A stretch of DNA of 44,079 nt from Pseudomonadales bacterium. GTDB lineage: Bacteria; Pseudomonadota; Gammaproteobacteria; Pseudomonadales; Moraxellaceae. The DNA lies in the NCBI GenBank assembly GCA_013043915.1, contig JABEVH010000207.1, forward strand, positions 1 to 44,079, read 5' to 3'. The translations under genes were made by a program, and so were the position numbers. Each line of letters opens with the position of its first letter. The first letter of the stretch is position 1. The notes beneath the pieces are model-generated. The model did not search any database. It saw nothing but the letters and a program-made list of their open reading frames with translations, and was not told the origin of the DNA. Below, in pieces: positions 20,097 to 37,500 of the stretch.

Positions 20097-21497
20097 ATGA
20101 GTGTAGCCATGAGCCAGTTGGACAAACTCTGGGGTGGGCGTTTTCAGGAGCCTACAGACAAATTTGTTGAGGCCTTCACCGCTTCTGTGAGTTTTGATCA
20201 ACGCCTGTATCGCCACGACATACAAGGTTCCGTGGCCCATGCCCGCATGTTGCAGTCCGTCGGTGTGCTGACGGAAGCTGAGTGCTTAAGTATTGTCAAA
20301 GGGTTACAGGAAATCCTTGCCGAGATTGAAGCAGGTAGCTTTGAGTGGCGGCAGGATCTTGAAGATGTGCATATGAACATTGAGTCACGCCTGACCAGTC
20401 GCATTGGTGATGCGGGTAAAAGATTACATACGGGGCGTTCACGTAACGACCAAGTGGCCACCGATATTCGCCTTTACCTGCGCGATGCGGTGGATAGATT
20501 GATGCTACAGCTGCGGCAGTTGATGGAAGGCCTGATCAATTTGGCGGAGCTGGAGGCAGATACCATCATGCCAGGGTTCACGCACCTGCAAACGGCCCAA
20601 CCGATTACCTTGGGGCATCACCTTCTGGCTTGGTTTGAAATGCTGATGCGTGACCTGGAGCGTTTTATCGACCTGCGCAGACGCATTAATCGCATGCCCT
20701 TGGGAGCAGCAGCCCTCGCAGGAACCAGCTACCCCATCGATCGGGCCCTGACAGCAAGCCTTCTGGGTTTTGAAGCGGTATGTGAAAATTCTCTGGATGC
20801 AGTTTCAGACCGTGATTTTGCCATTGAATTTGCTGCAGCCAGCAGTTTGGTGATGATGCATTTATCACGTTTTTCTGAGGAATTGGTACTCTGGTCGTCA
20901 GCCCAGTTTGGATTTGTCGATTTGCCAGATCGATTCTGTACAGGATCTTCGATCATGCCGCAGAAAAAGAATCCGGATGTCCCTGAGCTGGTGCGTGGCA
21001 AGACGGGGAGAGTATACGGACACCTGATGTCGCTACTGACCCTGATGAAGTCACAACCCCTAGCTTATAACAAGGATAATCAGGAAGACAAAGAGCCTAT
21101 CTTTGATACGATCGATACCCTGGCAGGTTGTCTGCGTGCCTTTGCCGATATGATCCCGCACTTAAAGCCTCAGCGTCAGCGCATGCGCCAAGCCGCCTTG
21201 CAGGGATATGCCACAGCAACGGATTTGGCTGATTATCTGGTGCGCAAAAACATACCCTTTCGTGACGCTCATGAAATTGTGGGTAAAGCTGTGCGCTATG
21301 GGGTAGACCAGGGATGGGATCTATCGGTGATGAGCCTGGATCAATTGCGTCAATTTTCTCCCGTCATCGAGCAGGATGTTTTCGAGGTACTGACGCTGGA
21401 AGGTTCGGTTGCATTGCGCAAGCATCGTGGTGGGACGGCTCCCGAGCGCGTACGTCAAGCAGTCAAGGAAGCGCGAGACCGTTTGCGTGGGATCTAG
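20097..21497 (+). CDS. argH: Argininosuccinate lyase
   Basis: KLWGGRF at the N-terminus, SRNDQV, and the fumarate-lyase signature [12 protein letters not shown] are all present. An alternative start is ATG 20109. Confidence 0.95.
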
Positions 21498-21499
21498 TT

Positions 21500-22036
21500 T
21501 CAGCGTGCACAGTCCTTTAGGTGGGCTCGGTATAAAATCTGTTTGACCAGCAGTGCCGTGATGGGAAAGCCCAGTATCAGGGCCACAAATGTGGCTCGAT
21601 CAAGGCCAAGTACTGCAAGATAAGCCAAGGCTACACCGATGCCAGAGTCCATCTGGTCAAGCAGCGTAAATGCCAGCGTAAACCGGCTTGATGTTGCTCC
21701 GGGAGGAATGCCTAATCGCCGCTTCAGAAACGAGTTGGGAAGCTCGGCAAGTACATAACCCAGCCCAGCTGCTAGTCCAGCCAGCAGCATAGGGTGGTGA
21801 TGGTAAGGAGAGTGGGGAACCCATTTATCCCACGGCAGTAACAACAGCGTGCCTAACATGCAAAATAGAGGCATTAGTATCAGGCCGCGCCAGGTTTTAT
21901 TTTGTCCGAAGCTGCGAATATGCAGGGGACGTGCGAGTGAAGGCAGCCATTGCCAGGTCACGGCCATCATGTGCAAGACACCAGCGAAGATCACAGGTAT
22001 GAGTAAATAGAAGGCGAGTAAGACAGTTTGCAGCAT
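21500..22036 (-). CDS. CDP-archaeol synthase-like (CarS / DUF46 family) integral membrane cytidylyltransferase
   Basis: It is 178 aa with about 5 TM helices. The blocks GQNKTWRGL and NSFLKRRLGIPPG...LLDQMD correspond to the GDGKTWRG and SFIKRRxG...DQ blocks of archaeal CarS as I recall them. Its start overlaps the upstream stop by 1 nt (TGATG). Confidence 0.7.
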   Translation of the reverse strand: MLQTVLLAFYLLIPVIFAGVLHMMAVTWQWLPSLARPLHIRSFGQNKTWRGLILMPLFCMLGTLLLLPWDKWVPHSPYHHHPMLLAGLAAGLGYVLAELPNSFLKRRLGIPPGATSSRFTLAFTLLDQMDSGIGVALAYLAVLGLDRATFVALILGFPITALLVKQILYRAHLKDCAR

Positions 22037-22659
22037 CAGCTAGCTCTGCCGGTAAGATCCAGAATCAAAAAAAGTAATGCCCCTCCTAACGTTAATGAGA
22101 GTATTTGCCAAAGACGTGTGAACTTGAAAAATGGCCGGTGTAAAAGCATGGCGTGACTAAATAGCAGTAGCAAGATCAGGGTAAGCAGACGCCATAGGTT
22201 GAGAGTCATGATGCCGTGGATGAGCAGCATGGCTGCCAGCAGAAACAGGCTCCAGAATACCGGCATGCCACGGTAGGCTAACCCCCCCCGTGCATCTTCG
22301 ATATTGCCGGTGTCATTGAATACCGCCAAGCGTATTAGACCACAGCCGACCATGAGTATCAGGCCCACAGACCAGAACCCATTAAAACCTTCACCATACA
22401 GGATGAGTGCGGGGCTTAGCAGGTAGATCAGCACATCCATAAAACCATCAAGATAACGGCCAAAAGGACGTACCAGGCCGAGGTGTCTTGCCAGCATACC
22501 GTCAAGGGCATCACCGAGCATGGCTAAAAAAAGCAGGCTGGTTGCCAGCAAGGGGCGATGGGCCAGGCTGAGTGCCATGGCCAGCATGGTGGTGGGTACG
22601 GCGCTTAAGGTAATGAGGTCAACACGATTCAGGCGAACCAGGTAGTAGGGCGAGTTCAT
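22036..22659 (-). CDS. CDP-alcohol phosphatidyltransferase family protein
   Basis: It matches the family motif D-x2-D-G-x2-A-R-x8-G-x3-D-x3-D exactly: DALDGMLARHLGLVRPFGRYLDGFMD. It is a polytopic membrane protein. Confidence 0.85.
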   Translation of the reverse strand: MNSPYYLVRLNRVDLITLSAVPTTMLAMALSLAHRPLLATSLLFLAMLGDALDGMLARHLGLVRPFGRYLDGFMDVLIYLLSPALILYGEGFNGFWSVGLILMVGCGLIRLAVFNDTGNIEDARGGLAYRGMPVFWSLFLLAAMLLIHGIMTLNLWRLLTLILLLLFSHAMLLHRPFFKFTRLWQILSLTLGGALLFLILDLTGRAS

Positions 22660-24218
22660 GCAGGGCGCCTCGCGTTTAAAGACATCTGGCGTAAGGCCGG
22701 GCGATCAATTTTACTCTGATGCCGACCATCGAGGGGCATGGTGTCGATACGAGTTATGGCAATTGTTTCCAGGCTCATCGAGCTCAGCTGCTCATGTACC
22801 TGTTGATCTGGTGTTGAACCTTGCAAGACTAGCAGAGGACGGTCCTGATGCTTAATAAGAGCACAGCGTTCCATGCCAGGCAGGCTATCAATACGCTTTT
22901 CTATAGGATAGGGCCAAAATACTTGACCTGCATGTTCCACAGAGTCACGAAGACGACCTACCAGCCATAATCTGTTCATATCATCCAGATAACCCGCATC
23001 CCCGGTGCGGTGCCAGACACTACCATCGGCTCGCGGTAGCTTGCTTTCCTGCGTGGCTTGGGGATTGTCCACATACCTTTGCAGCACATGCGCGCCACTG
23101 ACGAGAACTTCGCCTATTTGCCCCGAGGGGCAATATTGCTGGCTGGCAATCTCATCAACGGTATAATCCTGATTTAAGGGCCAGATAGCTATTTCAGCCA
23201 GGTCAGCAGCACGTCCTACGAGGTAACCTTCACCGAAATCCCCCTCTTCAACGAGCTCTCGGCAAGGGAGTGTTGCTATAGGTTCAGCTTCGGTTGAACC
23301 GTAGACAGCGATGACCTCAGCGTGAGAAAAAAGCTGTAGCAGTGATTTAGCCAGATGGGTGGACACGGAGGAACCACCAACAGCGACCTGACGAATCTTG
23401 GGAAGTCGCCCATTAGCTTGCTGAGCATAGTGGCAAAGCCGGTTCATGAATCCCGGGGCCCCTGAGAGACGTGTGACACCTGATCGTTGCAGTTGTTCAA
23501 ACAATCTAGCAGCATCAAATTCGGCGGGATGAGCCAAGTCGATGGCAGGTAATACGGTCGGTAGGCCACAACAGAGATTGTGTAGCACCATGACCGGAAA
23601 GCAGGTGCAATCTACATCATCGTCTTGATCCTGCCAGTGCTGACGCATGGCATGATGTTGCGCTAACAGGCTGGTGTGGGTACGGTCAGCCCCTTTAGGG
23701 CGTCCTGTGCTGCCTGAGGTAAATGTAATCAACCCGTGCGCCTGATGCGGTAAGGGTTGGGCGCGGGCTGCTGCCTGTTGACTCAGGTCTAGACGGCGTA
23801 CTCCCCTTGACTGTCCATCGAAGGCCAGTCGACGCATACGCCAGAGCGGGGGTACTAACCACCACGAGCGCAGCAACGACAGCTCACCCATCGCAAAACG
23901 AGCGCCACTGCTGGAGATGGCAGAGAGTATGCGCGAGCGGCTCATTCCCCGATCAAGCAGTACGGCTACCATGCCTAAACCGAGGAGGGCCAGGGTGAGA
24001 ACGTAGAGCTCATAGCGTACACGCGAAAGAATCAGGACACGATCGCCTGCATGCCCACCAGCCTGTTGCAGGGCGTGTTGGTAGCACCCTATATCCTGAA
24101 TCAGGGACTGGTAGGTCCAGCTATGTTCCTGTCCTGATTCATCAGGTAGCGTTAAAGCTATACGGTCAGGGTGTTCCTGGCCAGCTAGAAGGATAGGGCT
24201 CAACAGATTTTTGTTCAT
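22656..24218 (-). CDS. Adenylate-forming enzyme (AMP-dependent synthetase/ligase superfamily)
   Basis: The core motifs are TFTSGSTGRPKG (A3), YGSTEAEP (A5), HRTGD (A7) and the C-terminal lysine block DGRHQSKIDR (A10). Confidence 0.85.
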   Translation of the reverse strand: MNKNLLSPILLAGQEHPDRIALTLPDESGQEHSWTYQSLIQDIGCYQHALQQAGGHAGDRVLILSRVRYELYVLTLALLGLGMVAVLLDRGMSRSRILSAISSSGARFAMGELSLLRSWWLVPPLWRMRRLAFDGQSRGVRRLDLSQQAAARAQPLPHQAHGLITFTSGSTGRPKGADRTHTSLLAQHHAMRQHWQDQDDDVDCTCFPVMVLHNLCCGLPTVLPAIDLAHPAEFDAARLFEQLQRSGVTRLSGAPGFMNRLCHYAQQANGRLPKIRQVAVGGSSVSTHLAKSLLQLFSHAEVIAVYGSTEAEPIATLPCRELVEEGDFGEGYLVGRAADLAEIAIWPLNQDYTVDEIASQQYCPSGQIGEVLVSGAHVLQRYVDNPQATQESKLPRADGSVWHRTGDAGYLDDMNRLWLVGRLRDSVEHAGQVFWPYPIEKRIDSLPGMERCALIKHQDRPLLVLQGSTPDQQVHEQLSSMSLETIAITRIDTMPLDGRHQSKIDRPALRQMSLNARRPA

Positions 24219-25336
24219 GTACGTAGATTCCCGCAGTACAGCGCGTAATGATGCATACGGGTCGTACCATGACGCTGAGCAAAATGAGCCGATGCATTAT
24301 CTTCTCGTACCAGAGCCGCAGCAATCTGCTCATAATGCCCTTGGGCTCGCAAGGTCAGCTCGCAGCTCATGGCGGTGAATAACCCCATGTCCCGGTAATC
24401 GGGATGAACGGCCGCCGTGCGAGCCAGTAACCGACGTGGATGGGGTAACTCGGACCGATGCCTGTCATAGTGCAAAGCTGATAAAGATATCGGCCTTGTT
24501 CCGTGCACGCGCAAAAGTGGGCTGTAGTCAGGATAGGCCAGAAAGAAACCGGCAATAGCACCATCGCTGGTTTCTGCTCTTAGGGAGGTCAGTGGGCAAA
24601 ATCGATCAGCAAAGGGATGACCACAATGATTACGAAAGGCTTTCAAAGATAGCGGCGTATATGCAAAATTGTCGGCAAATGACTGTTGAACAAAATCATA
24701 GAGCTGATCCAGATCCCTTAACCAGTCCTCAGGCAGCATGGGTAGCAAGCGGACTTTTCCTTGCATGCGCTTATTGACGCGTTCAAGGTCCTTGCGAACA
24801 TTGACCACGGTATCTTCTACCGAGGTAAAGGTGGAGAGATAACGGTAACAGGAGGTTAGGCCCAACGATTGCATGAGCTCAGCATAGTAGGGTGGATTCC
24901 AGGGCTCTCCGGGAAATGCACCTGCCTCGAAAGCATCGAGACGCACACGGTAAGCCCCGTAGGTGGTAAAATTGATAGGTCCATAAATTTTCTTCGCCCC
25001 TTTAGCTTCAGCCCAGGTTTTTAGTGCGTTAAATAATGTTGCATTGGCCTCAGGTACATTCATGGTTTCCCAATAACCAAAGAATGCAGCCTGTTCACCC
25101 TGAATAAGCTGCCCAGGCAGTATAAAGCCAGCCAGTCGAGCCTGATGCGGAATCAGTCCCACCCAAGCATGCCCCTGCTCAAACCAGGTATTGGCAACAC
25201 TAAAGGCTTGTTGTACCGATGCAGAGTCTTCACCCAACCAATAGGGATCCTCTGCATAAATCTGAGCAGGCAGATCAAGGAAGTCTGCAGGTAGCGAGTC
25301 CTGCGCAGGATCCCAGGTACCTTGCCATAGCATCAT
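24215..25336 (-). CDS. Hypothetical protein, possible GNAT-fold acyltransferase
   Basis: It is 373 aa and soluble. The C-terminal segment LARTAAVHPDYRDMGLFTAM resembles GNAT motif A (V.P.YRG.G). It overlaps both neighbours by 4 nt. The function is uncertain. Confidence 0.45.
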   Translation of the reverse strand: MMLWQGTWDPAQDSLPADFLDLPAQIYAEDPYWLGEDSASVQQAFSVANTWFEQGHAWVGLIPHQARLAGFILPGQLIQGEQAAFFGYWETMNVPEANATLFNALKTWAEAKGAKKIYGPINFTTYGAYRVRLDAFEAGAFPGEPWNPPYYAELMQSLGLTSCYRYLSTFTSVEDTVVNVRKDLERVNKRMQGKVRLLPMLPEDWLRDLDQLYDFVQQSFADNFAYTPLSLKAFRNHCGHPFADRFCPLTSLRAETSDGAIAGFFLAYPDYSPLLRVHGTRPISLSALHYDRHRSELPHPRRLLARTAAVHPDYRDMGLFTAMSCELTLRAQGHYEQIAAALVREDNASAHFAQRHGTTRMHHYALYCGNLRT

Positions 25337-28044
25337 GAGCTGCTCCGTAATTCTTGGCGTATGATTTTCCCGCTAGAACCATCCATGCGAACATGCTCGC
25401 CATCCTTAATACAACGTGTGATGCCTGGAATGCCGACAATGGCGGGTATACCGAGCTCCCGCGCCACCACGGCCGAGTGGGAAAGTGTCGAGCCGCGCTC
25501 AACCAGCAGTCCGCCAACCGTTGGAAATAAAGGGGCCCATCCTGGATCAGTTCTCATGGTGCATAAGATTTGGCCATTGAGGCTCAGTTCATCTTCGGGA
25601 GAGAAAATAAGCCGCACCGGGGCTTCGACGATGCCCGGGTAACATCCCGTCCCCTTTAACTCTAGTCCATCGGCTGACAGGGCTGAATCTTCTTCCGGTC
25701 CATGATAGGGCCCGGGGTGATTGGCCATACCGTAGGTCCACACCTGGGGCCCGGGTTCCTGATCACTATAACGAGCATATTCCTGCTGTCTCAGTTGAAC
25801 CAGGCCTGGTAGATTAGTCTGAATGGCTCGTCCATCATGCAGCGCATAAATTTCATCCAGGGTCAGATAAAAAATATCGCGGGCTTGAGTTAAGTAAGCA
25901 CTGCTTGCCAACTGCTGCCCTAATTCCAAAAAAATATCTCGGTATAAACCGAATAAACGTGTGCGCGCCAGACGCATGCTCTCACGATAACGAACAGCAT
26001 GGCGCAGTTGTTGCAGTTGGTGCTGAAACCGGCGCAACGGCCGAGAACCTAAGCGTTCCTTGATGCGGGCAAATGCTTGAGCTTCAGCCTCGGATCGGAA
26101 GCCGGCCTCGCGCAGGGTCAATGTGTCCGGACCCAAGTCATCACGGGTCAGATAATTGCGCAAAATGGCAAAGAGAAAAGAGGGATCCTGGCGCAGGGTC
26201 ATAGATTCAAGTTTTAGCTCCCCCATGCACCGGTCACCGTAGCACTCAATATAAGCCTGGCACTGCTCATAAAACGTAGGATCAAGAATCTGTAACCTTG
26301 CCAGTATCATGCTTTGGTCACTGGCCTCGACCAAGGCCCGTGCGGGTGGATGTAGCCTCAGGTAGGCGCACATACGCAGCAGCATCTTGGTGGGTTCAGT
26401 ACTTTCGATGCCCTCTTCACCTGAGAGGAGGTTGTTTTGTAACAATGAGGGCTCAGAAAATCCAGCAGCAACCAGGGTTCGATGTACACGCCCATTCATC
26501 ATCATGACATAGAAATCATTGATGATAGGGGTGGTCCAGCGTTGCAAAAGTTCAAGATCCAGCTGTTTTAAGGTGCTTACCAGGGCTGCACTGTCCAGCG
26601 TATGCAACAGGTTACGGTCGATATGGGCATAGACGTTCTCAAAGTGTTCACGAAAATTGCGAACGCGCGCCTCCATGTTTTGAAAGCCCAAAAAGAGATG
26701 GAACAGGGCACGCAAAACCTGAGGCAGGCGGTGCAGTTTTTCCCGCCAGCTGAACGTGGTGTCCTGAATCAGATCCACAGGCTGAGTCAGGCCCATCATG
26801 CGTTCCATGTCGGCCTTGTTGGTCCGAAATGAGGGCAAAAGCAGAAGGCCACGATACCAGTTATTGATGTTGTAGTAGATGCGTCCATGCAGCAAGCCCA
26901 ACATATTGCCGAGCATGGAGCGATGGGCTTCAATAACGTGTTCAGATATGCCCAGAATACGCATGGTCTGTTCATACACGGTGGCATAGGCTTGGCTAGC
27001 AAAAGAGAACGTCAGGGGAGTCGTGACGCCACAATAGGACTCTTGAATATTGGCATTATCAAATACCGTCAGGGGGGTGGTTTCCTGCGGCGCAGGTAAC
27101 TGGGTAATCGGTCGGGTTTGCAGGATAAAAAATTGACCTTGCCGGTAAGTCCATTCAATATCCTGCGGGGCGCGTTGCAGATGGGCAATGCGTAATCCAA
27201 TATCGCGCAGGTTGAGTATGTTTTCAGGGCTAAGGCAGGGTTCCTGCCGGCGTACCAGATCTACCGTGCTTTCGCAGGTTCCTTGGCCTTTCGCATGATC
27301 AAATATGAGAGCCGTATCTTTCTCGGCGATCTGTGACTTGATATGACTATCAAATAGTCCCACGCTATAATCATCGGCATTGCACAGGCCGCTGACCAGA
27401 CCTTCCCCCAGACCCCAGGTGGCTGAAATCAAAGCCTGGTCCCTCTGGCCAGTGACCGGGTGTGCGGTAAACATCACCCCGGAGACCTCACCGTCCACCA
27501 TATCCTGCAAGATAATGGCAGAGCGTATATCGTCCAGAGGCAAGCCACGTGTCAAGCGATACTGCAAGGCACGGGCATTATAGGCGGATGCGGCTACATG
27601 CAAGATGGCGGCTTCGAGATGGCCAAGTCCTCGCTGAAACAGCAGGCTATCCATCTGACCGGCAAACGAGGCGCCTTCGGCATCTTCGCCGACGACCGAG
27701 GAACGTACAGCAAGGAAGAGGTCTTCACGGCCTGTTAGCCAAGTCTTTAGAGGGTGGCGCAGATCATCAGGAAAAGTAGCCTGATACCAGAGAGACTGGA
27801 TTTGGTGGGCGGCAACTTCGATTTCCTGGAAACTTGACGTGCGATGTATTCCTTGCATAGACCGCTGGATCTGGTCATGCAAACCCAGCTGTTGCAGGAG
27901 CAGTGCCCAGGCTTGGGTGGTAAGCACGGCCCAGCGCGGCACAGCTAGTCCTGCGCGTGTCAATTCAGCTAGATGAGCGGCTTTGCCACCCAGAGCATCG
28001 GTACCTAATCCCAGGGCCTGTTCCTGTGTCAATAACATATTCAT
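25333..28044 (-). CDS. PEP-utilising-enzyme family phosphotransferase with rifampicin-phosphotransferase-like architecture (N-terminal ATP-grasp, central domain, C-terminal swivel His domain)
   Basis: The N-terminus has LGGKAAHLAEL..., AVRSSVVGEDAEGASFAGQ, GVMFTAHPVTG...WGLGEGLVSG and PQDIEWTY..FFILQTRPIT. The C-terminus has GIVEAPVRLI...ILCTMRTDPGWAPLF...GGLLVERGSTLSHSAVVARELGIPAIVG (phospho-His motif). It has no C-terminal PEP/pyruvate TIM-barrel, so it is not a true PpsA. Confidence 0.8.
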   Translation of the reverse strand: MNMLLTQEQALGLGTDALGGKAAHLAELTRAGLAVPRWAVLTTQAWALLLQQLGLHDQIQRSMQGIHRTSSFQEIEVAAHQIQSLWYQATFPDDLRHPLKTWLTGREDLFLAVRSSVVGEDAEGASFAGQMDSLLFQRGLGHLEAAILHVAASAYNARALQYRLTRGLPLDDIRSAIILQDMVDGEVSGVMFTAHPVTGQRDQALISATWGLGEGLVSGLCNADDYSVGLFDSHIKSQIAEKDTALIFDHAKGQGTCESTVDLVRRQEPCLSPENILNLRDIGLRIAHLQRAPQDIEWTYRQGQFFILQTRPITQLPAPQETTPLTVFDNANIQESYCGVTTPLTFSFASQAYATVYEQTMRILGISEHVIEAHRSMLGNMLGLLHGRIYYNINNWYRGLLLLPSFRTNKADMERMMGLTQPVDLIQDTTFSWREKLHRLPQVLRALFHLFLGFQNMEARVRNFREHFENVYAHIDRNLLHTLDSAALVSTLKQLDLELLQRWTTPIINDFYVMMMNGRVHRTLVAAGFSEPSLLQNNLLSGEEGIESTEPTKMLLRMCAYLRLHPPARALVEASDQSMILARLQILDPTFYEQCQAYIECYGDRCMGELKLESMTLRQDPSFLFAILRNYLTRDDLGPDTLTLREAGFRSEAEAQAFARIKERLGSRPLRRFQHQLQQLRHAVRYRESMRLARTRLFGLYRDIFLELGQQLASSAYLTQARDIFYLTLDEIYALHDGRAIQTNLPGLVQLRQQEYARYSDQEPGPQVWTYGMANHPGPYHGPEEDSALSADGLELKGTGCYPGIVEAPVRLIFSPEDELSLNGQILCTMRTDPGWAPLFPTVGGLLVERGSTLSHSAVVARELGIPAIVGIPGITRCIKDGEHVRMDGSSGKIIRQELRSSS

Positions 28045-30776
28045 AACACCGTTCCCTCATGAGACCAGAGATCCCGAAAACTGCGGTAGGCTCGCTCCAT
28101 GAATCCATAGTGACGGAAGGTGTGTGCCATCAGATACAGGGGCATGCGGGTTACCATGATATCCATCAGAGCCAGGGTGTAGCCGCGACGCCAACGAACC
28201 GGATCCAGCGTTTGCCCGCTGTGACGCTCAAGTTCTTGTCGATGCAGCTCGATATAGTGTTCTACATCATGGGTATCTACCGGGTCATACAGCGTAAAGC
28301 CTAGCAACTCCACCAAATCATGTTGAGGAAGATGTAAGGTGGCTAGTTCCCAGTCATAGGCACATAGCCGCAAACTGCCGTCTTTCAGGCGACGGAAGGC
28401 GATATTGCGCGGATTAAAGTCATTGTGGACCAGGGTACGTGGCATGGTTTCGATCTCAGGCCACCAGTGCTCAAGGGTATGAACAACGCTGCGAAACTTC
28501 GACAGGTCATCTTCTGAGAACCATTCTGGAAACTCTTCCCGGGCATGTGCACCGAGCAGTTCCCAGAGTCGAAGTTTGTCCTGCATGCCATGGGCATGAG
28601 GGTAATCGACCAACCAGGGTTGCTGTTTGAGTTCATCTTCGCGCCCAAGCCAGATACTGTGAACTTCGGCTATGCCCCTAATGGCGGCATCAATATGTTC
28701 GCGCGTCCAGGAGGACGTATCATCCGCTGTGTCCATGAGTTCAAGCCAGGTCAGATGTTCCTGGATGAGTACATAGGCCTCACGTTCAGTATCGGCAAGT
28801 ACGCCGTAGGTGATAGGTGCATGACGCTGAAAGCGTGGATCCTGCTGGCTCATGACCATCAGTTCACGCGTATGACAGCCCCGGAATCCCAAGTGTTGCT
28901 TGCAGCGGTTGAACTCTTGCGCCAAACGGGGGTTGCACATGGCGGCAAGGCTATTGAGCATGAGAATGACTTCGTCATCCAGGGGTTTGATCTTGACCAT
29001 CACATCCAGGTTGCCGGCGCTAGTTTTGAGCCGAAAAGGAAAGTGCCCCAGGATTTTATTGACTTTGTGAGAAGTCAGTTCGGTGATAATGCTTGATCCC
29101 GCCATCTTGATGGTTAGCGCAGTAACCTCCTGCACACGCAGCGTATGTAACCCGGTAGCTGCGATAATGCTATCGAAGAACTGCGCATCTAGCTGACCGA
29201 GTTTGAGATGATCGACCGGTCGATTGCGCCCGAGTTTTTCATGGGCGCGTGCAAACTGGTCAGAAGCGATGGCAGACAGGGTAGAGATATCCAGGGCAAG
29301 ACAGTAACCAGCCATAATTTCAGCCAGCTTATGGGCCTTACCGGGGCCAGCACAGCCCATGATGTCCAGGCATTCACGTTGTTGTGGCAAATTGGTACCA
29401 CCTCCTACGGTACCTATGACCAGGGAGGGTAACATCATGGTGCAATAGACATCCCCAGCTTCGGTGAGCTCCATATGCAGTTGGGCCAAGGCTGACTCAT
29501 GAACACAGGCAATATCCTGACCCAGAGCCGTGAAGAGAGCGGCGATCACGTTGGCAACGTTGATGTTCATACCGACCATGCCGCCAGCAATTGATCCGGC
29601 ACAACAGTAGTTGTAGGCGGAAACCAGTTGCCTTGGCGATACTTTCAGGATGCGCTCACAGATGTCTTGTCGAAGCAGCGCTTCGGCGACGACACGTATG
29701 CCCCGGCCATTTAAGAAGGTCTGGTAGGTCACCTTTTTGTCGTTGGACAGATTGGCATCGATGAGAAAGTTCTCAACGCGCAGCCCCTCAAATCCCTGAA
29801 TAGATTTCAGGATCCATTGGCAAATCTGCCAGCTGCATGTAGTCGTCATGTTCTGTCCGGCAGCATCGCCAGTACGATAAATCAGGTGTACATGCACAGA
29901 CCTCCCAAAAACAAAGGGACGCACGGCACGCAGGCTTGCGTAGTTGGAATAGCGCTGTGTTTCGGTTGCCATTTCATCAAAGTGATCCTTCACCCACTCG
30001 GCAAAAAAAAGGGCATTGGCCATGTCACCGAAGACAAATACCGGCACCCGCATCATGCGCTGCTCAATCACGCGAGCTGCGACGCCCCCGGATCGCGACA
30101 GCGCTGTGGCTCCCCGCGTTGTTGAAGCCACCAGAGCTCCCTCAGACGTGGCCATGGGTGCATAATACAGACCTTGCGCGTGTTCTCCGCGCAGATGCAA
30201 GGGACCGGCGATGCCGACGGGAACCTCTACGGAGCCAATCAGCGCCTCGATATTACTGACGAGCTTGCGTGGATCCAGGCTAAGCTTACTCACCGATTCA
30301 AGCTGACAACGCGTTTGTTCGCGTACAAATCCCAAACGTTCCTGTCGCGCCTCTTCGGTATAAAGACCTCGCGCCGGTATCTTGGGTAAATTGGTTTCAT
30401 CATAAATCGTGGGGTCGGATGGGGTGTTGCAAGAGCGCATCAGGTAACAGATTTCCCAGAGCTGATGGCGTGTCTCCGTACAGTCATCGCCATGAAGGAA
30501 TAATTCCCAGCCCCCTTCCTTGCGCTCTACACAACGGTGTACAGACATTCCCGGTATTTCAAAACGCCTGGATTCAACATCCAGTTGCAGTTCGCTAAGA
30601 TGTTCTCCCTCCTCAGGCGGTTCCTGTCTGGCATCAAGCCAGCAGATTAGCTGATTGCGGCCGATAGCATGAGGCGTGGCTTGAATGGGCTTTCCTTGCG
30701 TGGTCCAAGCTTGAATACGAGCACCCGCCGTAAATCCATAACGCGTGGTGTATCCGTAAGCAGGTAATTGTGACAT
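28041..30776 (-). CDS. Tri-partite fusion: unknown N-terminal domain (~130 aa), class-I-like HMG-CoA reductase catalytic domain, and C-terminal APH-type (aminoglycoside/choline-kinase-like) phosphotransferase domain
   Basis: HMGR blocks are IEALIGSVEVPVGIAGPL, MATSEGALVAST, DAAGQNM, SNDKKV...NGRG, GTVGGGT and the C-terminal His (ARAHEKLGRN). The kinase catalytic loop is LVHNDFNPRNIAF, and the metal-binding motif is AYDWELA. Confidence 0.8.
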   Translation of the reverse strand: MSQLPAYGYTTRYGFTAGARIQAWTTQGKPIQATPHAIGRNQLICWLDARQEPPEEGEHLSELQLDVESRRFEIPGMSVHRCVERKEGGWELFLHGDDCTETRHQLWEICYLMRSCNTPSDPTIYDETNLPKIPARGLYTEEARQERLGFVREQTRCQLESVSKLSLDPRKLVSNIEALIGSVEVPVGIAGPLHLRGEHAQGLYYAPMATSEGALVASTTRGATALSRSGGVAARVIEQRMMRVPVFVFGDMANALFFAEWVKDHFDEMATETQRYSNYASLRAVRPFVFGRSVHVHLIYRTGDAAGQNMTTTCSWQICQWILKSIQGFEGLRVENFLIDANLSNDKKVTYQTFLNGRGIRVVAEALLRQDICERILKVSPRQLVSAYNYCCAGSIAGGMVGMNINVANVIAALFTALGQDIACVHESALAQLHMELTEAGDVYCTMMLPSLVIGTVGGGTNLPQQRECLDIMGCAGPGKAHKLAEIMAGYCLALDISTLSAIASDQFARAHEKLGRNRPVDHLKLGQLDAQFFDSIIAATGLHTLRVQEVTALTIKMAGSSIITELTSHKVNKILGHFPFRLKTSAGNLDVMVKIKPLDDEVILMLNSLAAMCNPRLAQEFNRCKQHLGFRGCHTRELMVMSQQDPRFQRHAPITYGVLADTEREAYVLIQEHLTWLELMDTADDTSSWTREHIDAAIRGIAEVHSIWLGREDELKQQPWLVDYPHAHGMQDKLRLWELLGAHAREEFPEWFSEDDLSKFRSVVHTLEHWWPEIETMPRTLVHNDFNPRNIAFRRLKDGSLRLCAYDWELATLHLPQHDLVELLGFTLYDPVDTHDVEHYIELHRQELERHSGQTLDPVRWRRGYTLALMDIMVTRMPLYLMAHTFRHYGFMERAYRSFRDLWSHEGTVL

Positions 30777-30786: not shown

Positions 30787-31728
30787 TTAAGTTCCGTGGG
30801 CTGTCAGGCAGACAGCCATGATGACGCCATACCCCATCAGCATATTCATGGCAACGGCTTTTTCATTAGCTTTGCGCTGAGCGCTGGAGGGGTTGTTCTG
30901 GTAGTGATGTACTTGTCGTAGGGCCATGGCCCAACTTGCAATGATCAAACCCAGCATCCATAGCGGTAACTGCGGAAACAGTTCAAGCAGCAGGGCGCTT
31001 TGCAACAGCAACATGCCGGACACCAACCCCATGATGACCTTGGCGGCGAGGTGAGGGCCAAAAATTTTTGAGTAGGAGTCGACTCCTTCCTGTTCTTCCT
31101 CGGGTCCTTTGGTTTTGCGAGTGATTTCAAAGCAAAAACCGCTGGCAAAGGCCAGTAACATAAGCGTGATCAGAGAGGTATCTGGCAGGATGGAGGGAAC
31201 GGCCATTCGGGCCAGCCAGAAAACAATCAGGGGCATGACCAGCATATGTGAGATGGCATACCAGGTCAGGTGGCGAGTTAACCAGTCAGCTATAAAAAAT
31301 TCACGGGTCATCAGCACAGTCCAGGTAGCCATGATGCCCCAGGCGATGAGAATGGCTCCATGGGCATCGAAAACAAGAGCAAATCCCACTTGCATGAGTA
31401 CGCAGAGAAGAGCTATCCACCTCAAATCGCGTAGCGTGATCAGTCCTTGCTGTAATACCCGTTCAGGGTGGTGCAGGCAGTCACCGCTATAGTCCTTATG
31501 TTCATCCAGAATGCGTAGCGTTAAAAAGAAACTCCATGTCACTAAAGCACCCAGCACATCATAGGCATGCAGTAGTGGCCTCAGATGCATGGTTTGCCTG
31601 CTGACCACCGCCGTGGTGGCGTACAGGATAAAAAACAACAGGGCATTGGGGAGAGCAAAGCGTTCATGAACCCAGGCCATAAAACGTTGAACCCAGGGGC
31701 TTTGAAGGGTTAGTGAATTTGAAGGCAT
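30787..31728 (-). CDS. UbiA-superfamily prenyltransferase-like integral membrane protein
   Basis: It has 8-9 TM helices. The first Asp-rich loop is RILDEHKDYSGD...HPERVLQQGLI, and a second acidic loop is EEEQEGVDSYSKIFG. It is the first gene of the operon. Confidence 0.65.
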   Translation of the reverse strand: MPSNSLTLQSPWVQRFMAWVHERFALPNALLFFILYATTAVVSRQTMHLRPLLHAYDVLGALVTWSFFLTLRILDEHKDYSGDCLHHPERVLQQGLITLRDLRWIALLCVLMQVGFALVFDAHGAILIAWGIMATWTVLMTREFFIADWLTRHLTWYAISHMLVMPLIVFWLARMAVPSILPDTSLITLMLLAFASGFCFEITRKTKGPEEEQEGVDSYSKIFGPHLAAKVIMGLVSGMLLLQSALLLELFPQLPLWMLGLIIASWAMALRQVHHYQNNPSSAQRKANEKAVAMNMLMGYGVIMAVCLTAHGT

Positions 31729-32834: not shown

Positions 32835-33329
32835 TTACTGGCGCAATTTCATGATCATATCACGGCGCATTTGTTGTCGTTCAGCCGGGCTGGCATTTTT
32901 GAATTTGTCATGTAAGGCTTGACGCTCCTGCGGCGTCATATTAGCCCAGGCCTGACGTAATGCCTTTTGTTGGTCTTCAGGAAGACTCATGAACCAGCGA
33001 AAACGATCACGTATCCGCGCCTGTTCTGCAGGGGGGAGGTGCTGAAATTTTTCAAAGCGTTCGCGCAGTCGCAGTTTCTGCTCTTCCGGCAAGGCTTGCC
33101 AGCGTTCAAAACGTGCACGAACATCAGCTTGTTCGTCAGGAGACATGCGCTGGTAACTGGCAAAGCGCTGTAGTATACGTTCGCGCTGTACTGCCGGTAG
33201 GGTATTCCAGCGCGGGGCTAAAGGGGCCAAAAGCTGCTGAGTAGCTGGCGGCAACGTATTCCAGTCAGGGGCATCAGCCTGAGCCAATAAACTGGCCAGG
33301 CTCAAGCAAAACAGGATCCAAAGTTTCAT
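32835..33329 (-). CDS. DUF3106-like secreted repeat protein
   Basis: It has a signal peptide and about 7 degenerate ~20-aa repeats of the form [WF]xx[LM]PxxEQxxxRxRF (for example RFERWQALPEEQKLRLRERFEKFQHLPPAEQARIRDRFRWFMSLPEDQQ). It has the usual genomic partners, an ECF sigma factor and DUF3619. Confidence 0.65.
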   Translation of the reverse strand: MKLWILFCLSLASLLAQADAPDWNTLPPATQQLLAPLAPRWNTLPAVQRERILQRFASYQRMSPDEQADVRARFERWQALPEEQKLRLRERFEKFQHLPPAEQARIRDRFRWFMSLPEDQQKALRQAWANMTPQERQALHDKFKNASPAERQQMRRDMIMKLRQ

Positions 33330-33571: not shown

Positions 33572-33896
33572 GAGGGTCCTCGGCAATAGCCTGCAGCATG
33601 GGCATATCATCCAGCATCTGCAGATCAGCGGGAGAAAGCGAGCTGACAGCAGGTACTGACATAGGCTTAGTGCGTGTGGTTTGTAAGGTCAGTCCCAACA
33701 CCACCAGTCCCATGGCCAGCATACTGCCAGGAAGCCAAACGACAGGGCGATGCCACCAGGCTGGAGTAGCCTTAGCCTGAAGGGCATCCAAACGAGCTTG
33801 TCTCAGGGCGTGGGCGATCGGGGCAGGAACCTCCTGCGAACCTAGCTCCAGGGTTTGACGCAAGGTCTTAGCCAGTTCTTCATCTCGCTGCTTCAT
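33561..33896 (-). CDS. DUF3619-like single-pass membrane protein (putative anti-sigma or regulatory partner of the ECF sigma factor)
   Basis: It overlaps the sigma-factor stop by 4 nt. It is a short protein with a cytoplasmic N-terminus and one TM segment (VVWLPGSMLAMGLVVLGL). Its position is as in ECF/DUF3619/DUF3106 clusters. Confidence 0.55.
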   Translation of the reverse strand: MKQRDEELAKTLRQTLELGSQEVPAPIAHALRQARLDALQAKATPAWWHRPVVWLPGSMLAMGLVVLGLTLQTTRTKPMSVPAVSSLSPADLQMLDDMPMLQAIAEDPHAS

Positions 33897-34435
33897 GCAG
33901 GTTCTCCCAGGGCAGCACGCAAGCTCTGCATGGCCCGAAAAAGATGAGTTTTAACACTGCCCTCACTGCAACCCATGATATGGGCACAACTGGCAACATC
34001 CAGTCCTTCCCATATACGCAGCATGAAAGCCTGCTGTTGTCTTGTTGGCAAAGCGGCCAAAGCCTGCTCCACCGTAGCCATATCGCGAGCTCGTTCAAGC
34101 AGCAGCGCAGGATTACGGTCAACCGTATCAGGGATATGCTCCAGGATATCCTCAGTGTCTTCATTAGAATCTGCAATTTTACGGAAAAATAGCCAAGAAC
34201 GTTGGCGTGTTTGTTTTCTGTGCCAGTCAAGAATTTTATTTTGTAGGATGCGCATGAATAGTGCAGGCCATTCCGCAGAGGCCTTGTGACGGTAATTTTT
34301 AACCAGGCTGAGCATGGCCTCCTGTACGAGATCTAAAGCCTCAGCGTCTATGCGCGTGGCGATACGCGCCATGTGAAAGGCACGCCTTTCGACGCCGGCT
34401 AAAAACTTCTCCAGCTCACGATCCGGAACTGGCAT
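33893..34435 (-). CDS. ECF (sigma-24/RpoE-like) RNA polymerase sigma factor
   Basis: The region 2 blocks are ALDLVQEAMLSLVKNY and ILDWHRKQ. The region 4 HTH is LPTRQQQAFMLRIWEGLDVASCAHIMGCSEGSVKTHLFRAMQSLR. The likely start is ATG 34435 (GGAG 7 nt upstream) rather than the ORF top at 34543. Confidence 0.8.
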   Translation of the reverse strand: MPVPDRELEKFLAGVERRAFHMARIATRIDAEALDLVQEAMLSLVKNYRHKASAEWPALFMRILQNKILDWHRKQTRQRSWLFFRKIADSNEDTEDILEHIPDTVDRNPALLLERARDMATVEQALAALPTRQQQAFMLRIWEGLDVASCAHIMGCSEGSVKTHLFRAMQSLRAALGEPA

Positions 34436-34525
34436 AACCGCACTCCACCCGGCAAAATCGCATGCCATGCTACCCATAAAAGTTGATTCCACGCTAACGA
34501 TTACACTCAGTAACGTCGGCGCACC

Positions 34526-34551
34526 CGCTAGCGTTGACAGCAACGCTAGCG
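34526..34551 (-). repeat. Perfect 11-bp inverted repeat with a 4-nt loop (CGCTAGCGTTG-ACAG-CAACGCTAGCG) spanning the mshQ stop codon
   Basis: I read it directly from the sequence. The mshQ stop TAG (34548-34546) lies in the right arm. No U-tract follows on the minus-strand transcript. Confidence 0.9.
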
Positions 34552-37500
34552 AAACTGTTCATGCCAGTAAATGATAGGAGCTCTTCCCGGATAAACTCCA
34601 AAACTGGCCATGCCGCCTGGTGTGGTGGCAGATACACCACTGATAGGGAGATTATAAGGATAAATCATCAACCAGGCAGGAGCATTAGGGAATGTCAATT
34701 CTACCGAACCGGTAACATTAGGCGCAGAAAGGTTAATGGAGGTTTGCCCTAAGGATAGTGTTGCTGTATTGGGATTAACGTAGGAGGGGATCGTTGCTCC
34801 CGAGGTCAGTGCCCCTTGAAAATTGACCAGACGGGCCGTGCCAAAATTAGGGTTGCTGGAAGGCGTCAGGTTGAGAGTGGTGCAACTGTCCAGAGTGTTG
34901 GTGATAAAATCACTGTTACCACCGCCCACGGTAGCATAGTACTGTACGGTGACCGGAAGATTTAAGGGCAGTAATTCGGACCCATTGGCGGCAGTAATCC
35001 AGAGCCTGCCATAGCGTTCGCGCGTGCTTCCCAGGCTGACGGCGTCATTGCCCGTACCTGTGCTGGAGAAATTAAATCCCGTCATACCGATGCCGTCGCT
35101 ATCGATCGCATCCAGACCCACCGTGAAGTTATCATAGGTGCCATCAGGGGTTGCCAGCGATGTCAGGGTCAAGTTAGTGTTAAGGGGATTGGTAACACCT
35201 GCTGTCCAGGTATTGCCGCTCAGGCTACCGAGCTGAAGCCTTGAACTTAACGGCGTGGTAGGAGTGCTAACGTTGGCTGCTTTAAAGGTCATGCCGGCAG
35301 CACTACTGCCATTGAGGTTCAGTTTGGCAAAAGCTCCGCTGTAATTGACGGTGGTCATATTGGCCAGATTTTGAGCCACCAGTTGCCAGTTGACCGTCAT
35401 GGGTTGCTGCATATAGGTAAAGCCGCTGCTGCAGGCCGGAATCAGTTGGCTGGAAAGTAGCGCCAGGTGATCCGGTACAAAGCGACCGACATCAGGTGCA
35501 ATGCCTAAGACGGGGGTTGTACTACTGCTGCCCAAATAATTGTTCAGTTGTGCCTGGATGTTGATGATGCCGACATCGCTATAGCTGGCATTGACCAAGG
35601 ATTGGCCACCCGTAAACCCAGTGACCGAGGTAGGGCTTAAGCTACCCACATTGCCTGGACTAGGTAGCATTTGTACCGGAGCGATGTTGACGCTGGTGTT
35701 AAAATGAACAGCGAGCGTATCACCGAGCAAGTTGCTGCCATTGTCGGGAATACCATCATTATTGGTGTCCTGGGAGGCATTCCACAGCACAGCTTGTACA
35801 GCCATGGGAAACATCGAACCGGCTTTGGTAAAGTAAGGGCTGTCATTGGGATTATCTGCATAGGAAAGTGCCGTATCGTTTAAGCCATGGGCTAAACGAT
35901 CGCCAGAGAAGTCGATAGCAAAGCCAAAGGGACGAATCACATAGGTTGAGCTGCTTCCTTGGATCGTGTTACTGCCGCTAGGCAGGGCAGCCGCAAAGCC
36001 GCTACTATTATCCAGCAGGTTCAGCGACCATTGCCCGACATCGCTGGTAGTCACATTGAATGCAGCTGTTCCGGCATTAAATGTCAGACTCAGGTTGTTG
36101 CTGCCCGGAGGTGTGTTAGGCAAGGTTGAGGTCCCTAAAGTTGGATTGCTGCCGCCGGGGTCTGCAGCGCCGCGTGTAATCCATGCTTGCAAATTATAGG
36201 TGCCGCTATATTGCGTTGCGACGCTGCATAGAGCCCCTGAAACGCCATTACGCGTATAAAGCTGCACTTGCATGGGCTCTGACCGTCCCGCCACTAAAAC
36301 ATTACTTAGCTTATCGCTGGCATTAAGTGCGGGGTCATTGAGTGTGATGACAAACGCATTATTACTGAAGTTGATCGTGTTGCTTAGTCCATTGGTTGGG
36401 CCAGAAGTTCCACTCACCTGCAGGGAGTCAGCGTGTACATCGCTTAACTGTAAGGTCACGCTACCGTTGTCAGCTGCCGCAAAGCTGTAGGTAGCGCTAC
36501 CTGTATCACTACCCTGGTTTGTTAAAATGCCCTGGCCTGTCCCCAGTATCCAGGTTCCATGGTGGCTGCTGGTACCGAGTTGAACACTGCCTGTATAGGT
36601 GGTGACGATTTGGCCACTGGCATCGACTGCACTTAAGGTAACCGCTTGTGGTGTGCATGTACTAGCGTTGCTACTTGAAGTCATCTGCAGATTAGCCAGC
36701 TGATTAGCTGCGCAATAAAACAGACTGCTGGCGGGCACGGTACTGGTACCATGAGAGTTGGTCCATGCCATTTCCATGACCGACTGTCCCGGTCCCTGAA
36801 AGTAATTCAGGTGTACGGGATAATACTGATTCTTGAGCAGATGAATGGGCGATGAGCTTGTTGGCGTGGATGATTGCAGTACCCATTGGTTGATGATGGT
36901 ATTGCCTGCCAATTGCATCTGATTGCCATCATCGCTGATGACGGTAAAGGTATAGTCATCTGTGGTCGGAGCCATGATATAACCATCCCACTCTACCGAG
37001 AAATTGGTGGTGGGTATTCCGGAGACTGGCCAAGTTGTTCCTGTGTTAATCAGGCTTGGAAAATAAATCAGGGAGTCTACACGGTCGATTTCATTGCCGG
37101 TAAAAAAAGCATTGACTTGACCGTTTTGATTAAAATAACGCCCCAATAACCCAGGAGCCAACGCAGATCCTGCTTGAGGGGTTAGACTGGTTACAGTGTT
37201 ATTTGCGATAGTAAAACCACTGCTGGATTTAACATTATTGATGGTGACGGTGTAGGTCACGCCTGCGGTCATGGCTTTATTGGTGGTCAGCAACACACTG
37301 TTTGGATTGCTGGGGTTAATAATGGCCCCTGAAATATTGATACCGTTACTGCCGTTGATGGCATAGTTATGGGTGCGAGTGGCTGTGTTGGGATCCATGG
37401 CTGAAGAGAAATCAACCTCAATCTGATTGAGCGAGCCACAAGGTTGAGATGTTGAAGTAACCACCGGAGCTTGCAGGGAAAACAAATACGTTTGAGGGAT

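Follow-up and report, generated by a model that had tools for sequence, protein, structure and literature searches.

What reaction is carried out by a protein in which the catalytic domain of 3-hydroxy-3-methylglutaryl-CoA (HMG-CoA) reductase (HMGR) is joined to a small-molecule kinase? The question is raised by a gene on contig JABEVH010000207.1 of a Pseudomonadales bacterium (assembly GCA_013043915.1), the whole analysed stretch of which (44,079 nucleotides) is referred to here as the window. An earlier reading of the sequence (the original prediction) had described the product as an unusual three-part fusion and had proposed that an alcohol formed by the reductase is passed to the fused kinase, which is not of the GHMP family of canonical mevalonate kinases. 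On the basis of sequence comparison we propose, with a probability of roughly 55%, that the fusion protein works in lipid synthesis, where it would reduce a thioester and phosphorylate the resulting alcohol, with a PilZ-type domain for regulation or docking. Its product is most likely a phosphorylated alcohol for a membrane lipid not yet described rather than an intermediate of the mevalonate pathway, since the fusion gene sits in a conserved operon of lipid-building enzymes.

The gene is a genuine open reading frame (ORF) for a protein of 911 amino acids with, in this order, a PilZ fold, an HMGR domain and a kinase domain. No transmembrane segment was detected in a hydropathy scan; the sole hydrophobic stretch (amino acids 400–419) is a buried core helix of the HMGR fold. 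The claim of a soluble three-part fusion was therefore borne out by the Pfam matches and the hydropathy scan, but 'unusual' in the sense of rare it is not, because this architecture turns up widely, in metagenomes as well as genomes, and in several phyla. In a word-indexed search, 120 full-length orthologues with 56–92% identity were obtained from Pseudomonadales-type Gammaproteobacteria, the hosts including HdN1, Marinobacter, Moraxellaceae, Atopomonas and Bacterioplanoides; a 92%-identical copy is present in the metagenome-assembled genome 'Proteobacteria bacterium LL7.bin50'. A second search, started from a copy 36% identical to the fusion, found the HMGR–kinase core also in Oligoflexia, Spirochaetia, Desulfosarcinaceae, Bacteroidota, one firmicute, Pseudoalteromonas and Vibrio. 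When 1.84 billion cluster representatives were searched exhaustively, the 150 best clusters (50% identity) included at least 90 whose alignment spans both domains; about 50 of these have no N-terminal extension, 34 have an extension and five have longer modules. A scan of genome contigs with a single protein gave 11 loci, and neighbourhoods in relatives were gathered by exact-protein look-ups. Databases name these proteins only 'phosphotransferase' (the NCBI name of the orthologues) or 'HMG-CoA reductase (NADPH)'. A search of the full-text literature found no paper on the fusion or its operon and no characterised member, so the architecture does not appear there as a known enzyme. Antisense ORFs listed inside the gene, one of 183 amino acids within the kinase-coding part and further ones at 29817..30259 (Table 1), are most likely artefacts of mechanical ORF listing.

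The reductase domain is matched over profile positions 2–368 of 368 by PF00368 (HMG-CoA_red; E = 1.3e-116), and its nearest solved structure is the archaeal class I HMGR 6hr7 (E = 2.3e-74), with plant and human enzymes next. Every HMGR motif named in the original prediction was recovered: ATSEGALVAS at amino acid 209 (Glu212), DAAGQNM at 304, NDKK at 345, GTVGGGT at 455 and the C-terminal histidine in ARAHEK at 509 (His512); GQD lies at 419. To apply human HMGR numbering, 236 fusions (120 close, 116 distant) were aligned with sequences of the human, plant and archaeal enzymes. Glu559, Lys691, Asp767 and His866, together with Asn755, are present in 120/120 close fusions and in 113–116 of the 116 distant ones, while Arg590 and the cis-loop Asp690-Lys691-Lys692 scarcely vary among all 236. 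Neither the catalytic Glu, Lys, Asp and His of the reductase nor the catalytic Asp of the kinase has thus been lost in alignment. The score against the equivalog model TIGR00533 was 288 bits, below its cut-off of 441.8.

The residues that bind HMG present a divided picture, with Arg590, Asp690, Lys691, Lys692 and Asn755 kept and Lys735, Ser684, His752 and Leu853 changed. In human HMGR, Lys735 forms a salt bridge to the HMG carboxylate, and Ser684 and Leu853 also have roles in HMG contact (PMC9500038). No Lys or Arg is aligned at the position of Lys735 in any fusion alignment; Ser684 is replaced by Asp or Glu, His752 by Asn in 235/236 fusions and Leu853 by Thr in all 236. His752 and Leu853 are retained in the human, plant, archaeal and Bacteroidota-type HMGRs compared. 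The Asn752/Thr853 pair was found in 72 of 76 kinase-fused cluster representatives, and relatives in which the HMGR domain follows adenylation and thiolation (carrier) domains without a kinase (A-T-HMGR) keep His/Leu, or have Gln/Ile, at these positions; the signature therefore tracks the kinase fusion and not carrier linkage. Loss of Lys735 and Ser684 had been considered as proof of a new substrate, an argument weakened by the finding that standalone Bacteroidota- and Holophagae-type HMGRs share both changes, and in these alignments the pocket signature specific to the fusion is His752Asn plus Leu853Thr only. Two such standalone Bacteroidota-type class I enzymes (locus L006, 9557..11134; locus L008, 129..1670) have an N-terminal PF25653 domain and lack both Lys735 and Ser684, and the alignment gives no obvious clue to how the HMG carboxylate is bound in them.

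In the C-terminal domain PF01636 (APH) was matched over amino acids 675–844 (E = 1e-7; 32.3 bits against a cut-off of 23.2), overlapped by PF02958 (EcKL) at 21.2 bits, just under its cut-off of 22; PF01633 (choline kinase) was also matched in relatives of the fusion. The domain has a catalytic loop HNDFNPRN at 784 (H784, D786 and N791), a metal site in YDWE at 807 (D808), a beta3 lysine in VMVKIKP at 592 (K595/K597) and a Gly-rich GSSIITE at 560, all invariant or nearly so in an alignment of 12 orthologues. The presence of a complete kinase behind the reductase, originally proposed from HNDFNPRN and DWE, is upheld by these residues and by the APH match. A sequence search of the PDB gave no significant match of this domain to solved kinases, the best, insignificant ones being the ACAD11 kinase domain (E = 0.021, spanning only the catalytic loop), an APH (0.05) and choline kinase (0.45); an attempt to name the kinase substrate from solved structures was given up on this account.

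The N-terminal 120–140 amino acids, which the original prediction could not assign, indeed gave no Pfam match even at E = 10 and no match in a PDB profile search, and an hhalign comparison with the Bacteroidota HMG-CoA_red_N domain (PF25653) gave nothing. Structural comparison, already proposed for residues 1–130, was informative. An AlphaFold2 model of amino acids 1–143, built from an alignment of 20 orthologous N-termini (predicted local distance difference test score, pLDDT, 86.6), has six strands followed by a C-terminal helix, and its top ~40 Foldseek matches in the PDB were all PilZ domains, led by YcgR (5y6g; E = 2.6e-5, template modelling score 0.60) and then Alg44, BcsA, MrkH and VCA0042. 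As modelled, the N-terminal domain is a PilZ fold. The window copy has neither RxxxR nor [D/N]xSxxG, the corresponding stretch reading ...HAIGRNQL..., and canonical binding of cyclic di-GMP (c-di-GMP) is therefore doubtful here. Both motifs were found in 0/110 close gammaproteobacterial orthologues, 76 of which keep only D[VIL]S[KR], and in 29/100 distant orthologues having an N-terminal extension. The orthologue at the distant locus L005 has canonical motifs (RKESR...DRSREG), its N-domain aligning with the family profile in hhalign at E = 3e-4 with a probability of 40%; PF07238 was matched in orthologue P0263 (26.3 bits; cut-off 22.5) and in P0489, which has two PilZ domains. Judged from these motifs, the fusion probably responds to c-di-GMP in some lineages. 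The literature searched, where 'PilZ' queries were flooded by an author surname, yielded no account of a lipid or isoprenoid-type reductase that carries a PilZ domain. A second PilZ protein, with HEAT, STAS and PilZ domains (6341..8269), is separated from the fusion in L005 by one gene.

Other domain fusions in relatives bear on what the reductase accepts. P0315 (L016, 6767..11263) and P0395 contain AMP-binding, DIP2-like, carrier, HMGR and kinase domains in one chain; P0483 and P0476 are single-chain A-T-HMGR proteins, and P0472 is a carrier–HMGR protein. These A-T-HMGR-kinase chains indicate, as far as domain order can, that the reductase can take a pantetheine-bound acyl group and that the kinase acts downstream; their existence also argues that the adenylating enzyme feeds the reductase and that the direction is reductive. 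The ligase of the window has a gene of its own, the third after the fusion, and no carrier domain is present. The handing on of a nascent alcohol to the fused non-GHMP kinase, as first proposed, fits the data and is strengthened by the relatives with adenylation, carrier, HMGR and kinase domains, while its mechanism is still something we infer. Further relatives have a P-loop (thymidylate-kinase-like) kinase in front of the HMGR–kinase pair (P0404 and P0420), a BtaA-like DUF3419 domain followed by HMGR and APH (P0417), or PilZ–PilZ–HMGR without a kinase (P0489). We found no description in the literature of a non-ribosomal peptide synthetase (NRPS)-like adenylation–thiolation–reduction (A-T-R) architecture with an HMGR-fold terminal reductase in place of a short-chain dehydrogenase/reductase (SDR).

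The fusion gene is the second of a seven-gene operon on the minus strand with overlapping or closely spaced genes (Table 1). A gap of 10 bp separates it from the UbiA-like gene, and all later junctions overlap, four by ATGA (the first of these joining the fusion stop to the dikinase start) and the last by TGATG (a one-base overlap). A scan for operon promoters and terminators gave no more sites than shuffled sequence. Catalytic motifs are kept in all the partner enzymes. The UbiA-like protein has six hydrophobic segments and the motif DEHKDYSGD, and scored 218.7 bits against NF004617, below the cut-off of 239. The Rph-like dikinase matched NF004883 at 1346 bits, a family named only 'phosphoenolpyruvate synthase'; its PDB matches were better to 5fbs/5hv1 (256 bits), which we take to be the Listeria rifampin phosphotransferase (RPH), than to true phosphoenolpyruvate (PEP) synthases (187 bits), and its phospho-His motif is intact (GSTLSHSAVVAR). 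No Pfam match above threshold was obtained for the 373-amino-acid protein; its AlphaFold2 model (pLDDT 94.3) resembled the tandem GNATs MAB_4324 (7q3a; E = 2e-12), MshD and the tandem GNAT of the clavulanate pathway in Foldseek. All 195 homologues found come from this cluster type, and the nearest named relatives of the cluster genes are from Fluviicoccus. The 375-amino-acid and DUF362 genes beside the distant L005 fusion were compared with the 373-amino-acid gene and did not match it. The ligase exceeded the cut-off of NF006754 (484.9 bits; cut-off 478), with FadD5 as its best PDB match and a P-loop TSGSTGRPK. The CDP-alcohol phosphatidyltransferase (CDP-OH-PT) has a complete signature (DALDGMLARHLGLVRPFGRYLDGFMD), its nearest NCBIfam models being PssA and archaetidylserine synthase, both under cut-off; the CarS-like protein matched NF003114 at E = 9e-10 (38.7 against a cut-off of 148).

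Table 1. Features of the window, with coordinates, strand and the basis of assignment.
Feature	Coordinates	Strand	Basis or detail
UbiA-superfamily membrane prenyl/alkyl transferase	30787..31728	-	PF01040 35.3 bits (cut-off 34.2), weak
Fusion gene	28041..30776	-	
N-terminal PilZ-fold domain, degenerate c-di-GMP motifs	30423..30776	-	amino acids 1 to ~118; AlphaFold2 and Foldseek
Class I HMGR-fold domain, putative thioester reductase	29226..30347	-	amino acids 144–517; PF00368
Protein-kinase-like small-molecule kinase domain (APH/EcKL/choline-kinase type)	28041..29225	-	amino acids 518–911; PF01636
Rph-like 'X, water dikinase' (ATP-grasp N-domain and swivelling His domain)	25333..28044	-	PPDK_N and PEP-utilizers domains
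Tandem-GNAT acyltransferase, 373 amino acids, cluster-specific family	24215..25336	-	AlphaFold2 and Foldseek
Fatty-acid-CoA-ligase-family adenylating enzyme	22656..24218	-	PF00501
CDP-OH-PT	22036..22659	-	PF01066
CarS-like (CDP-archaeol-synthase family) membrane cytidylyltransferase, last operon gene	21500..22036	-	PF01864 24.5 bits (cut-off 22)
Antisense ORF, 183 amino acids	28545..29096	+	
Further antisense ORFs in the fusion gene	29817..30259		
Secreted protein, 306 amino acids	31887..32807	-	no family match
DUF3106 protein	32835..33329	-	
Extracytoplasmic function (ECF) sigma factor	33893..34543	-	
Type IV/MSHA-like pilus block	34546..44014	-	
ORF of 526 amino acids in the pilus block	42434..44014		outside family scan
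LytTR response regulator, histidine kinase and hem genes	3640..10953 and 20097..21497		
Envelope polysaccharide/lipopolysaccharide genes	877..3659 and 11007..19924		

In a tblastn matrix of the loci all seven genes occurred together in seven gammaproteobacterial loci, in each of which the UbiA-like gene adjoins the fusion; this gene is also present in L018, L019 and L020. The Rph-like dikinase co-occurs with the fusion in the gammaproteobacterial loci and in L018, L019, L020 and L023, and the CarS-like gene is next to or near the fusion also in the Vibrio, Marinicrinis and Pseudoalteromonas loci. Several gammaproteobacterial loci have an MMPL transporter, a LolA-like protein and a ~430-amino-acid protein upstream. 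Partner genes are themselves fused in places: the ligase with CDP-OH-PT in HdN1, the ligase with the CarS-like gene in L013, and in Bacterioplanoides a 410-amino-acid CDP-OH-PT gene has a C-terminal part resembling the CarS-like protein. Beyond these lineages the fusion is accompanied by Rph-like, UbiA, CarS-like, CDP-OH-PT and phosphatidylserine decarboxylase genes in Pseudoalteromonas denitrificans (L020); by CDP-OH-PT, Rph-like, UbiA-like and CarS-like genes in the firmicute Marinicrinis (L019); by a P450, a BtaA-like DUF3419 protein, Rph-like, ligase, UbiA-like, LolA-like and MMPL genes in Pseudobacteriovorax (L018); by ligase, MMPL, LolA-like and DUF3419 genes in a spirochaete (L021); and by Rph-like, CDP-OH-PT, ligase, MMPL and LolA-like genes in L023, from a lineage with a Pfam-detectable PilZ domain. 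In Vibrio nigripulchritudo (L017, 2399..13005) the neighbours are inositol-1-phosphate synthase, CDP-OH-PT, CarS-like, aminotransferase (DegT) and sulfotransferase genes with PgpA nearby, an operon that suggests an alkyl- or lipid-phospho-(modified inositol) product. The L017 fusion has no N-domain, and an FAD_binding_4 oxidase and a START-like protein are also encoded beside it. No GHMP kinase, mevalonate diphosphate decarboxylase, isopentenyl diphosphate isomerase or HMG-CoA synthase gene was found within ~10 kb of the fusion in the window and ~15 loci.

From these observations we infer that reduction precedes phosphorylation and that the substrate is not HMG. With two NAD(P)H, the HMGR-fold domain would convert an acyl thioester, probably not HMG-CoA, into a primary alcohol. 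Its substrate would be an acyl-CoA in the organism of the window, whereas some relatives would take an acyl-S-carrier; a thioester would be supplied by the acyl-CoA ligase. The APH/EcKL-type kinase domain would then phosphorylate the nascent alcohol with ATP, and the alcohol phosphate would serve as the building block of a membrane phospholipid completed by the rest of the operon. Entry of the phosphate ester into a CDP-alcohol-type lipid pathway is argued for by the CarS-like and CDP-OH-PT genes, which are the most faithful partners of the fusion and in Vibrio the only lipid-assembly partners, alongside the inositol-phosphate synthesis genes. The CarS-like enzyme would activate the lipid phosphate with CTP, and CDP-OH-PT would attach a polar, serine-like head group. 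The Rph-like dikinase may add a second phosphate; the UbiA-like enzyme may consume the resulting diphosphate or prenylate the free hydroxyl of a diol phosphate formed from a hydroxyacyl thioester; and the tandem GNAT may add an acyl group, which it would supply and attach together with the ligase. In relatives the product would be exported by the MMPL and LolA-like proteins. The roles of the dikinase, the UbiA-like enzyme and the GNAT, and the nature of the product, are speculative. An allylic substrate (2-enoyl- or prenoyl-CoA) would be chemically sensible, as UbiA enzymes normally need stabilised carbocation-type donors, although this is a guess.

A bolder version of this proposal, which we put forward tentatively and on balance doubt, is that the fusion represents a second large functional branch of the HMGR fold, a reductase-kinase, often PilZ-gated by c-di-GMP, that starts an archaeal-style and possibly ether-linked or glycerol-free lipid route. 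On this route the starting acyl thioester, whether fatty, hydroxy-fatty or prenoic, would first yield an alkyl or alkenyl phosphate and from it the diphosphate, which would be coupled by the UbiA-like enzyme, activated with CTP by the CarS-type enzyme, given its head group by the phosphatidylserine-synthase-like enzyme and exported to the outer membrane by MMPL and LolA-like proteins. The hosts of such a route would be Gammaproteobacteria, Firmicutes and Oligoflexia.

Two options had been left by the original prediction, a non-canonical phosphorylation of mevalonate and the reduction and phosphorylation of a different acyl-CoA. The second, extended to acyl thioesters in general, is now favoured and the first less so, because Lys735 is absent, Ser684 is Asp or Glu, the His752Asn/Leu853Thr pair is present and no mevalonate-pathway gene was found in the ~15 loci. 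Under the first option the protein would be a genuine HMG-CoA reductase with a non-GHMP mevalonate kinase, making phosphomevalonate; the dikinase would then act as a phosphomevalonate kinase feeding isoprenoids to the UbiA-like enzyme, or phosphomevalonate itself would be built into the product. We regard this as unlikely, but a number of observations speak for it and so weigh against a new thioester substrate. The match to PF00368 and to solved class I HMGRs is strong and full-length, with ~40% identity to archaeal HMGR as judged by eye from the alignment; the catalytic tetrad and the HMG-contacting Arg590, Asp690, Lys691, Lys692 (the cis-loop Asp-Lys-Lys) and Asn755 are all conserved. Glu684, DAAGQNM and the loss of Lys735 also occur in the standalone Bacteroidota- and Holophagae-type enzymes, presumably genuine HMGRs, so that HMG-CoA is a possible substrate despite both pocket changes. 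A prenyltransferase-family gene adjoins the fusion, and in some relatives the reductase is preceded by a P-loop kinase, the same fold class as animal phosphomevalonate kinase; leucine catabolism, moreover, makes HMG-CoA available in Pseudomonadales. The lipid proposal is also strained by loci L005 and L022, in which the fusion has no lipid partner at all, by two loci with a BtaA-like gene in place of the CDP enzymes, which fit a phosphate-ester model less well, and by the chemistry of the UbiA family, which normally needs allylic or otherwise stabilised diphosphate donors, a saturated alkyl diphosphate being unusual. Against a mevalonate role, on the other hand, stand the missing decarboxylase, isomerase, HMG-CoA synthase and GHMP kinase; a His752Asn/Leu853Thr pair that is in virtually all fusions and in no reference HMGR compared; a TIGR00533 score below cut-off; and A-T-HMGR-kinase chains that would take carrier-bound acids activated by a DIP2/FAAL-like adenylation domain. 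The genes that accompany the fusion, moreover, encode enzymes for membrane lipids and exporters of lipids.

A different order of reactions, in which the kinase phosphorylates a hydroxyacyl-CoA before its reduction or the two domains act on different intermediates, is improbable in our view. It is prompted by the top, though very weak, PDB sequence match of the kinase domain, the kinase domain of ACAD11: the APH-fold kinases of ACAD10, ACAD11 and LvaA have hydroxyacyl-CoAs (4-hydroxyacyl-CoA) as their substrates. A diol-type intermediate would also offer the UbiA-like, GNAT and BtaA-like partners a second functional group. The ACAD11 match, however, is insignificant and confined to the catalytic loop, and the kinase-less A-T-HMGR proteins and partner-free reductase-kinase fusions suggest a simple reduce-then-phosphorylate module; the sequence gives no hint of which hydroxyl is phosphorylated. 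Least probable of all, and in our opinion very much so, is a kinase-like domain that is regulatory, gating or phosphorylating the reductase in the manner of AMPK with eukaryotic HMGR, or that is an inactive scaffold. The fold is indeed protein-kinase-like, a further regulatory-type domain (PilZ) is present and kinase-less relatives exist, but the Pfam matches are to small-molecule families (APH, EcKL and choline kinase), and a pseudokinase is made less likely by the fact that no catalytic or metal-binding residue varies across hundreds of sequences. The CarS-like partners, needing a phosphate-ester substrate, likewise fit a metabolic kinase.

Comparison with known systems places the proposed thioester reductase and alcohol kinase among several of them. 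With class I HMGR (EC 1.1.1.34; Methanothermococcus thermolithotrophicus 6hr7, human 1dq8) it shares the fold of the whole catalytic domain, the Glu/Lys/Asp/His set, Asn755, Asp-Lys-Lys and the ENVIG-like and GTVGGGT motifs and, presumably, a chemistry in which four electrons reduce a pantetheine thioester to a primary alcohol. It differs in the absence of Lys735, the changed Ser684, His752 and Leu853 and the sub-threshold TIGR00533 score, in its C-terminal kinase and N-terminal PilZ domain, in the carrier-bound substrates expected for some relatives, and in never lying beside mevalonate-pathway genes in the window and ~15 loci. Acids activated as thioesters are reduced to an aldehyde or alcohol by carboxylic acid reductases and NRPS-like A-T-R enzymes, by myxobacterial ElbD and by fatty acyl-CoA reductases such as Marinobacter Maqu_2220. 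Like A-T-R systems, the proposed pathway would adenylate an acid, make a thioester and reduce it for lipid synthesis, and P0315, P0395 and P0483 have their domains in A-T-R order; unlike them, the reductase has an HMGR fold rather than an SDR/Rossmann fold and is followed by a fused kinase.

The hydroxyls of small molecules and of lipids are the targets of APH-type kinases, and choline kinase serves in the engineered isopentenol utilisation pathway. The kinase domain has the Brenner-type loop HxDxxxxN, the Asp metal ligand and the beta3 lysine of the APH, choline kinase and EcKL families, but is very divergent and is joined to the enzyme that would make its presumed substrate. In phytol salvage (plant VTE5/VTE6) an alcohol is phosphorylated twice to a diphosphate, which is then used by a UbiA-type transferase; the two-step phosphorylation followed by UbiA proposed here would be similar, except that the second kinase is of the PEP-synthase/Rph type and not of the isopentenyl phosphate kinase or VTE6 type. 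That dikinase has the same three-part architecture and phospho-His motif as RPH and PigC/RedH and is closer to RPH structures than to PEP synthases, yet falls far below the equivalog cut-offs of rph, PigC and RedH (334 against 999; 281 against 1300) and has its own family, NF004883.

The archaeal phospholipid pathway offers a further parallel, in that the UbiA (digeranylgeranylglyceryl phosphate, DGGGP, synthase), CarS and CDP-OH-PT (archaetidylserine synthase) families occur in one operon, all above Pfam gathering scores; their order would fit ether formation, CDP activation and head-group transfer, and P. denitrificans adds a phosphatidylserine-decarboxylase homologue. The UbiA and CarS matches, however, are weak and far under the archaeal equivalog cut-offs, and no DGGGP synthase model was matched. 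Glycerol-1-phosphate dehydrogenase and geranylgeranylglyceryl phosphate synthase were not found among the Pfam-scanned window ORFs of at least 150 amino acids (three ORFs of this size, two sense and one antisense, were unscanned). The hosts, moreover, are bacteria (Gammaproteobacteria, Firmicutes and Oligoflexia), and the precursor would come from a reductase-kinase and not from a geranylgeranyl diphosphate synthase. The N-terminal domain, finally, resembles the PilZ receptors BcsA, Alg44 and YcgR in its predicted beta-barrel and C-terminal helix, in its position N-terminal to an enzyme and, in a subset of orthologues, in its canonical motifs; it is unlike them in that RxxxR is missing from the window copy and the 110 close orthologues, where DxSxxG is reduced to DVSKxH or less.

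Few enzyme families have been studied as much as HMG-CoA reductase, to which a single dedicated substrate is ascribed. If the proposal is true, the HMGR fold is also a general thioester-to-alcohol reductase, and the label 'NADP-dependent HMG-CoA reductase' can falsely imply a mevalonate pathway in bacteria that use the methylerythritol phosphate pathway. The partnership with UbiA, CarS and CDP-OH-PT families and with exporters would point to an undescribed class of membrane lipid, which bears on how strictly archaeal-type lipid enzymes stay within archaea, and the PilZ domain would offer a testable link from c-di-GMP signalling to membrane lipid synthesis. The question is directly testable, because the operon is compact (seven genes) and present in cultured strains, among them HdN1, Bacterioplanoides, Atopomonas, Pseudoalteromonas denitrificans and Marinicrinis.

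The rest of the window flanks this operon on both sides. The secreted 306-amino-acid ORF was tried as a member of the system and left out, because it is beside the fusion in no other locus of the tblastn matrix. Together with this ORF, the ECF sigma factor and the DUF3106 protein are directly upstream of the lipid operon and are followed by a type IV/MSHA-like pilus block with four or five N-methyl prepilin-type genes, a type II secretion system F (T2SS-F) platform protein and a 1168-amino-acid protein with PA14 and DUF6701 domains (MshQ-like). On the other side, a LytTR response regulator and histidine kinase are followed by hemC-hemD-hemX-hemY, with argH nearby, an arrangement that we take to be the algZ/algR-hemCD-argH region of Pseudomonas and that presumably fits a Pseudomonadales/Moraxellaceae-like host. 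The envelope polysaccharide and lipopolysaccharide genes encode an LptF/G permease, an ArnT-like PMT_2 transferase, a heptosyltransferase, glycosyltransferases, an O-antigen ligase (Wzy_C) and a methyltransferase, as well as an MBOAT and AlgX-like SGNH pair, which presumably resembles an O-acetylation pair of the AlgI/AlgJ type.

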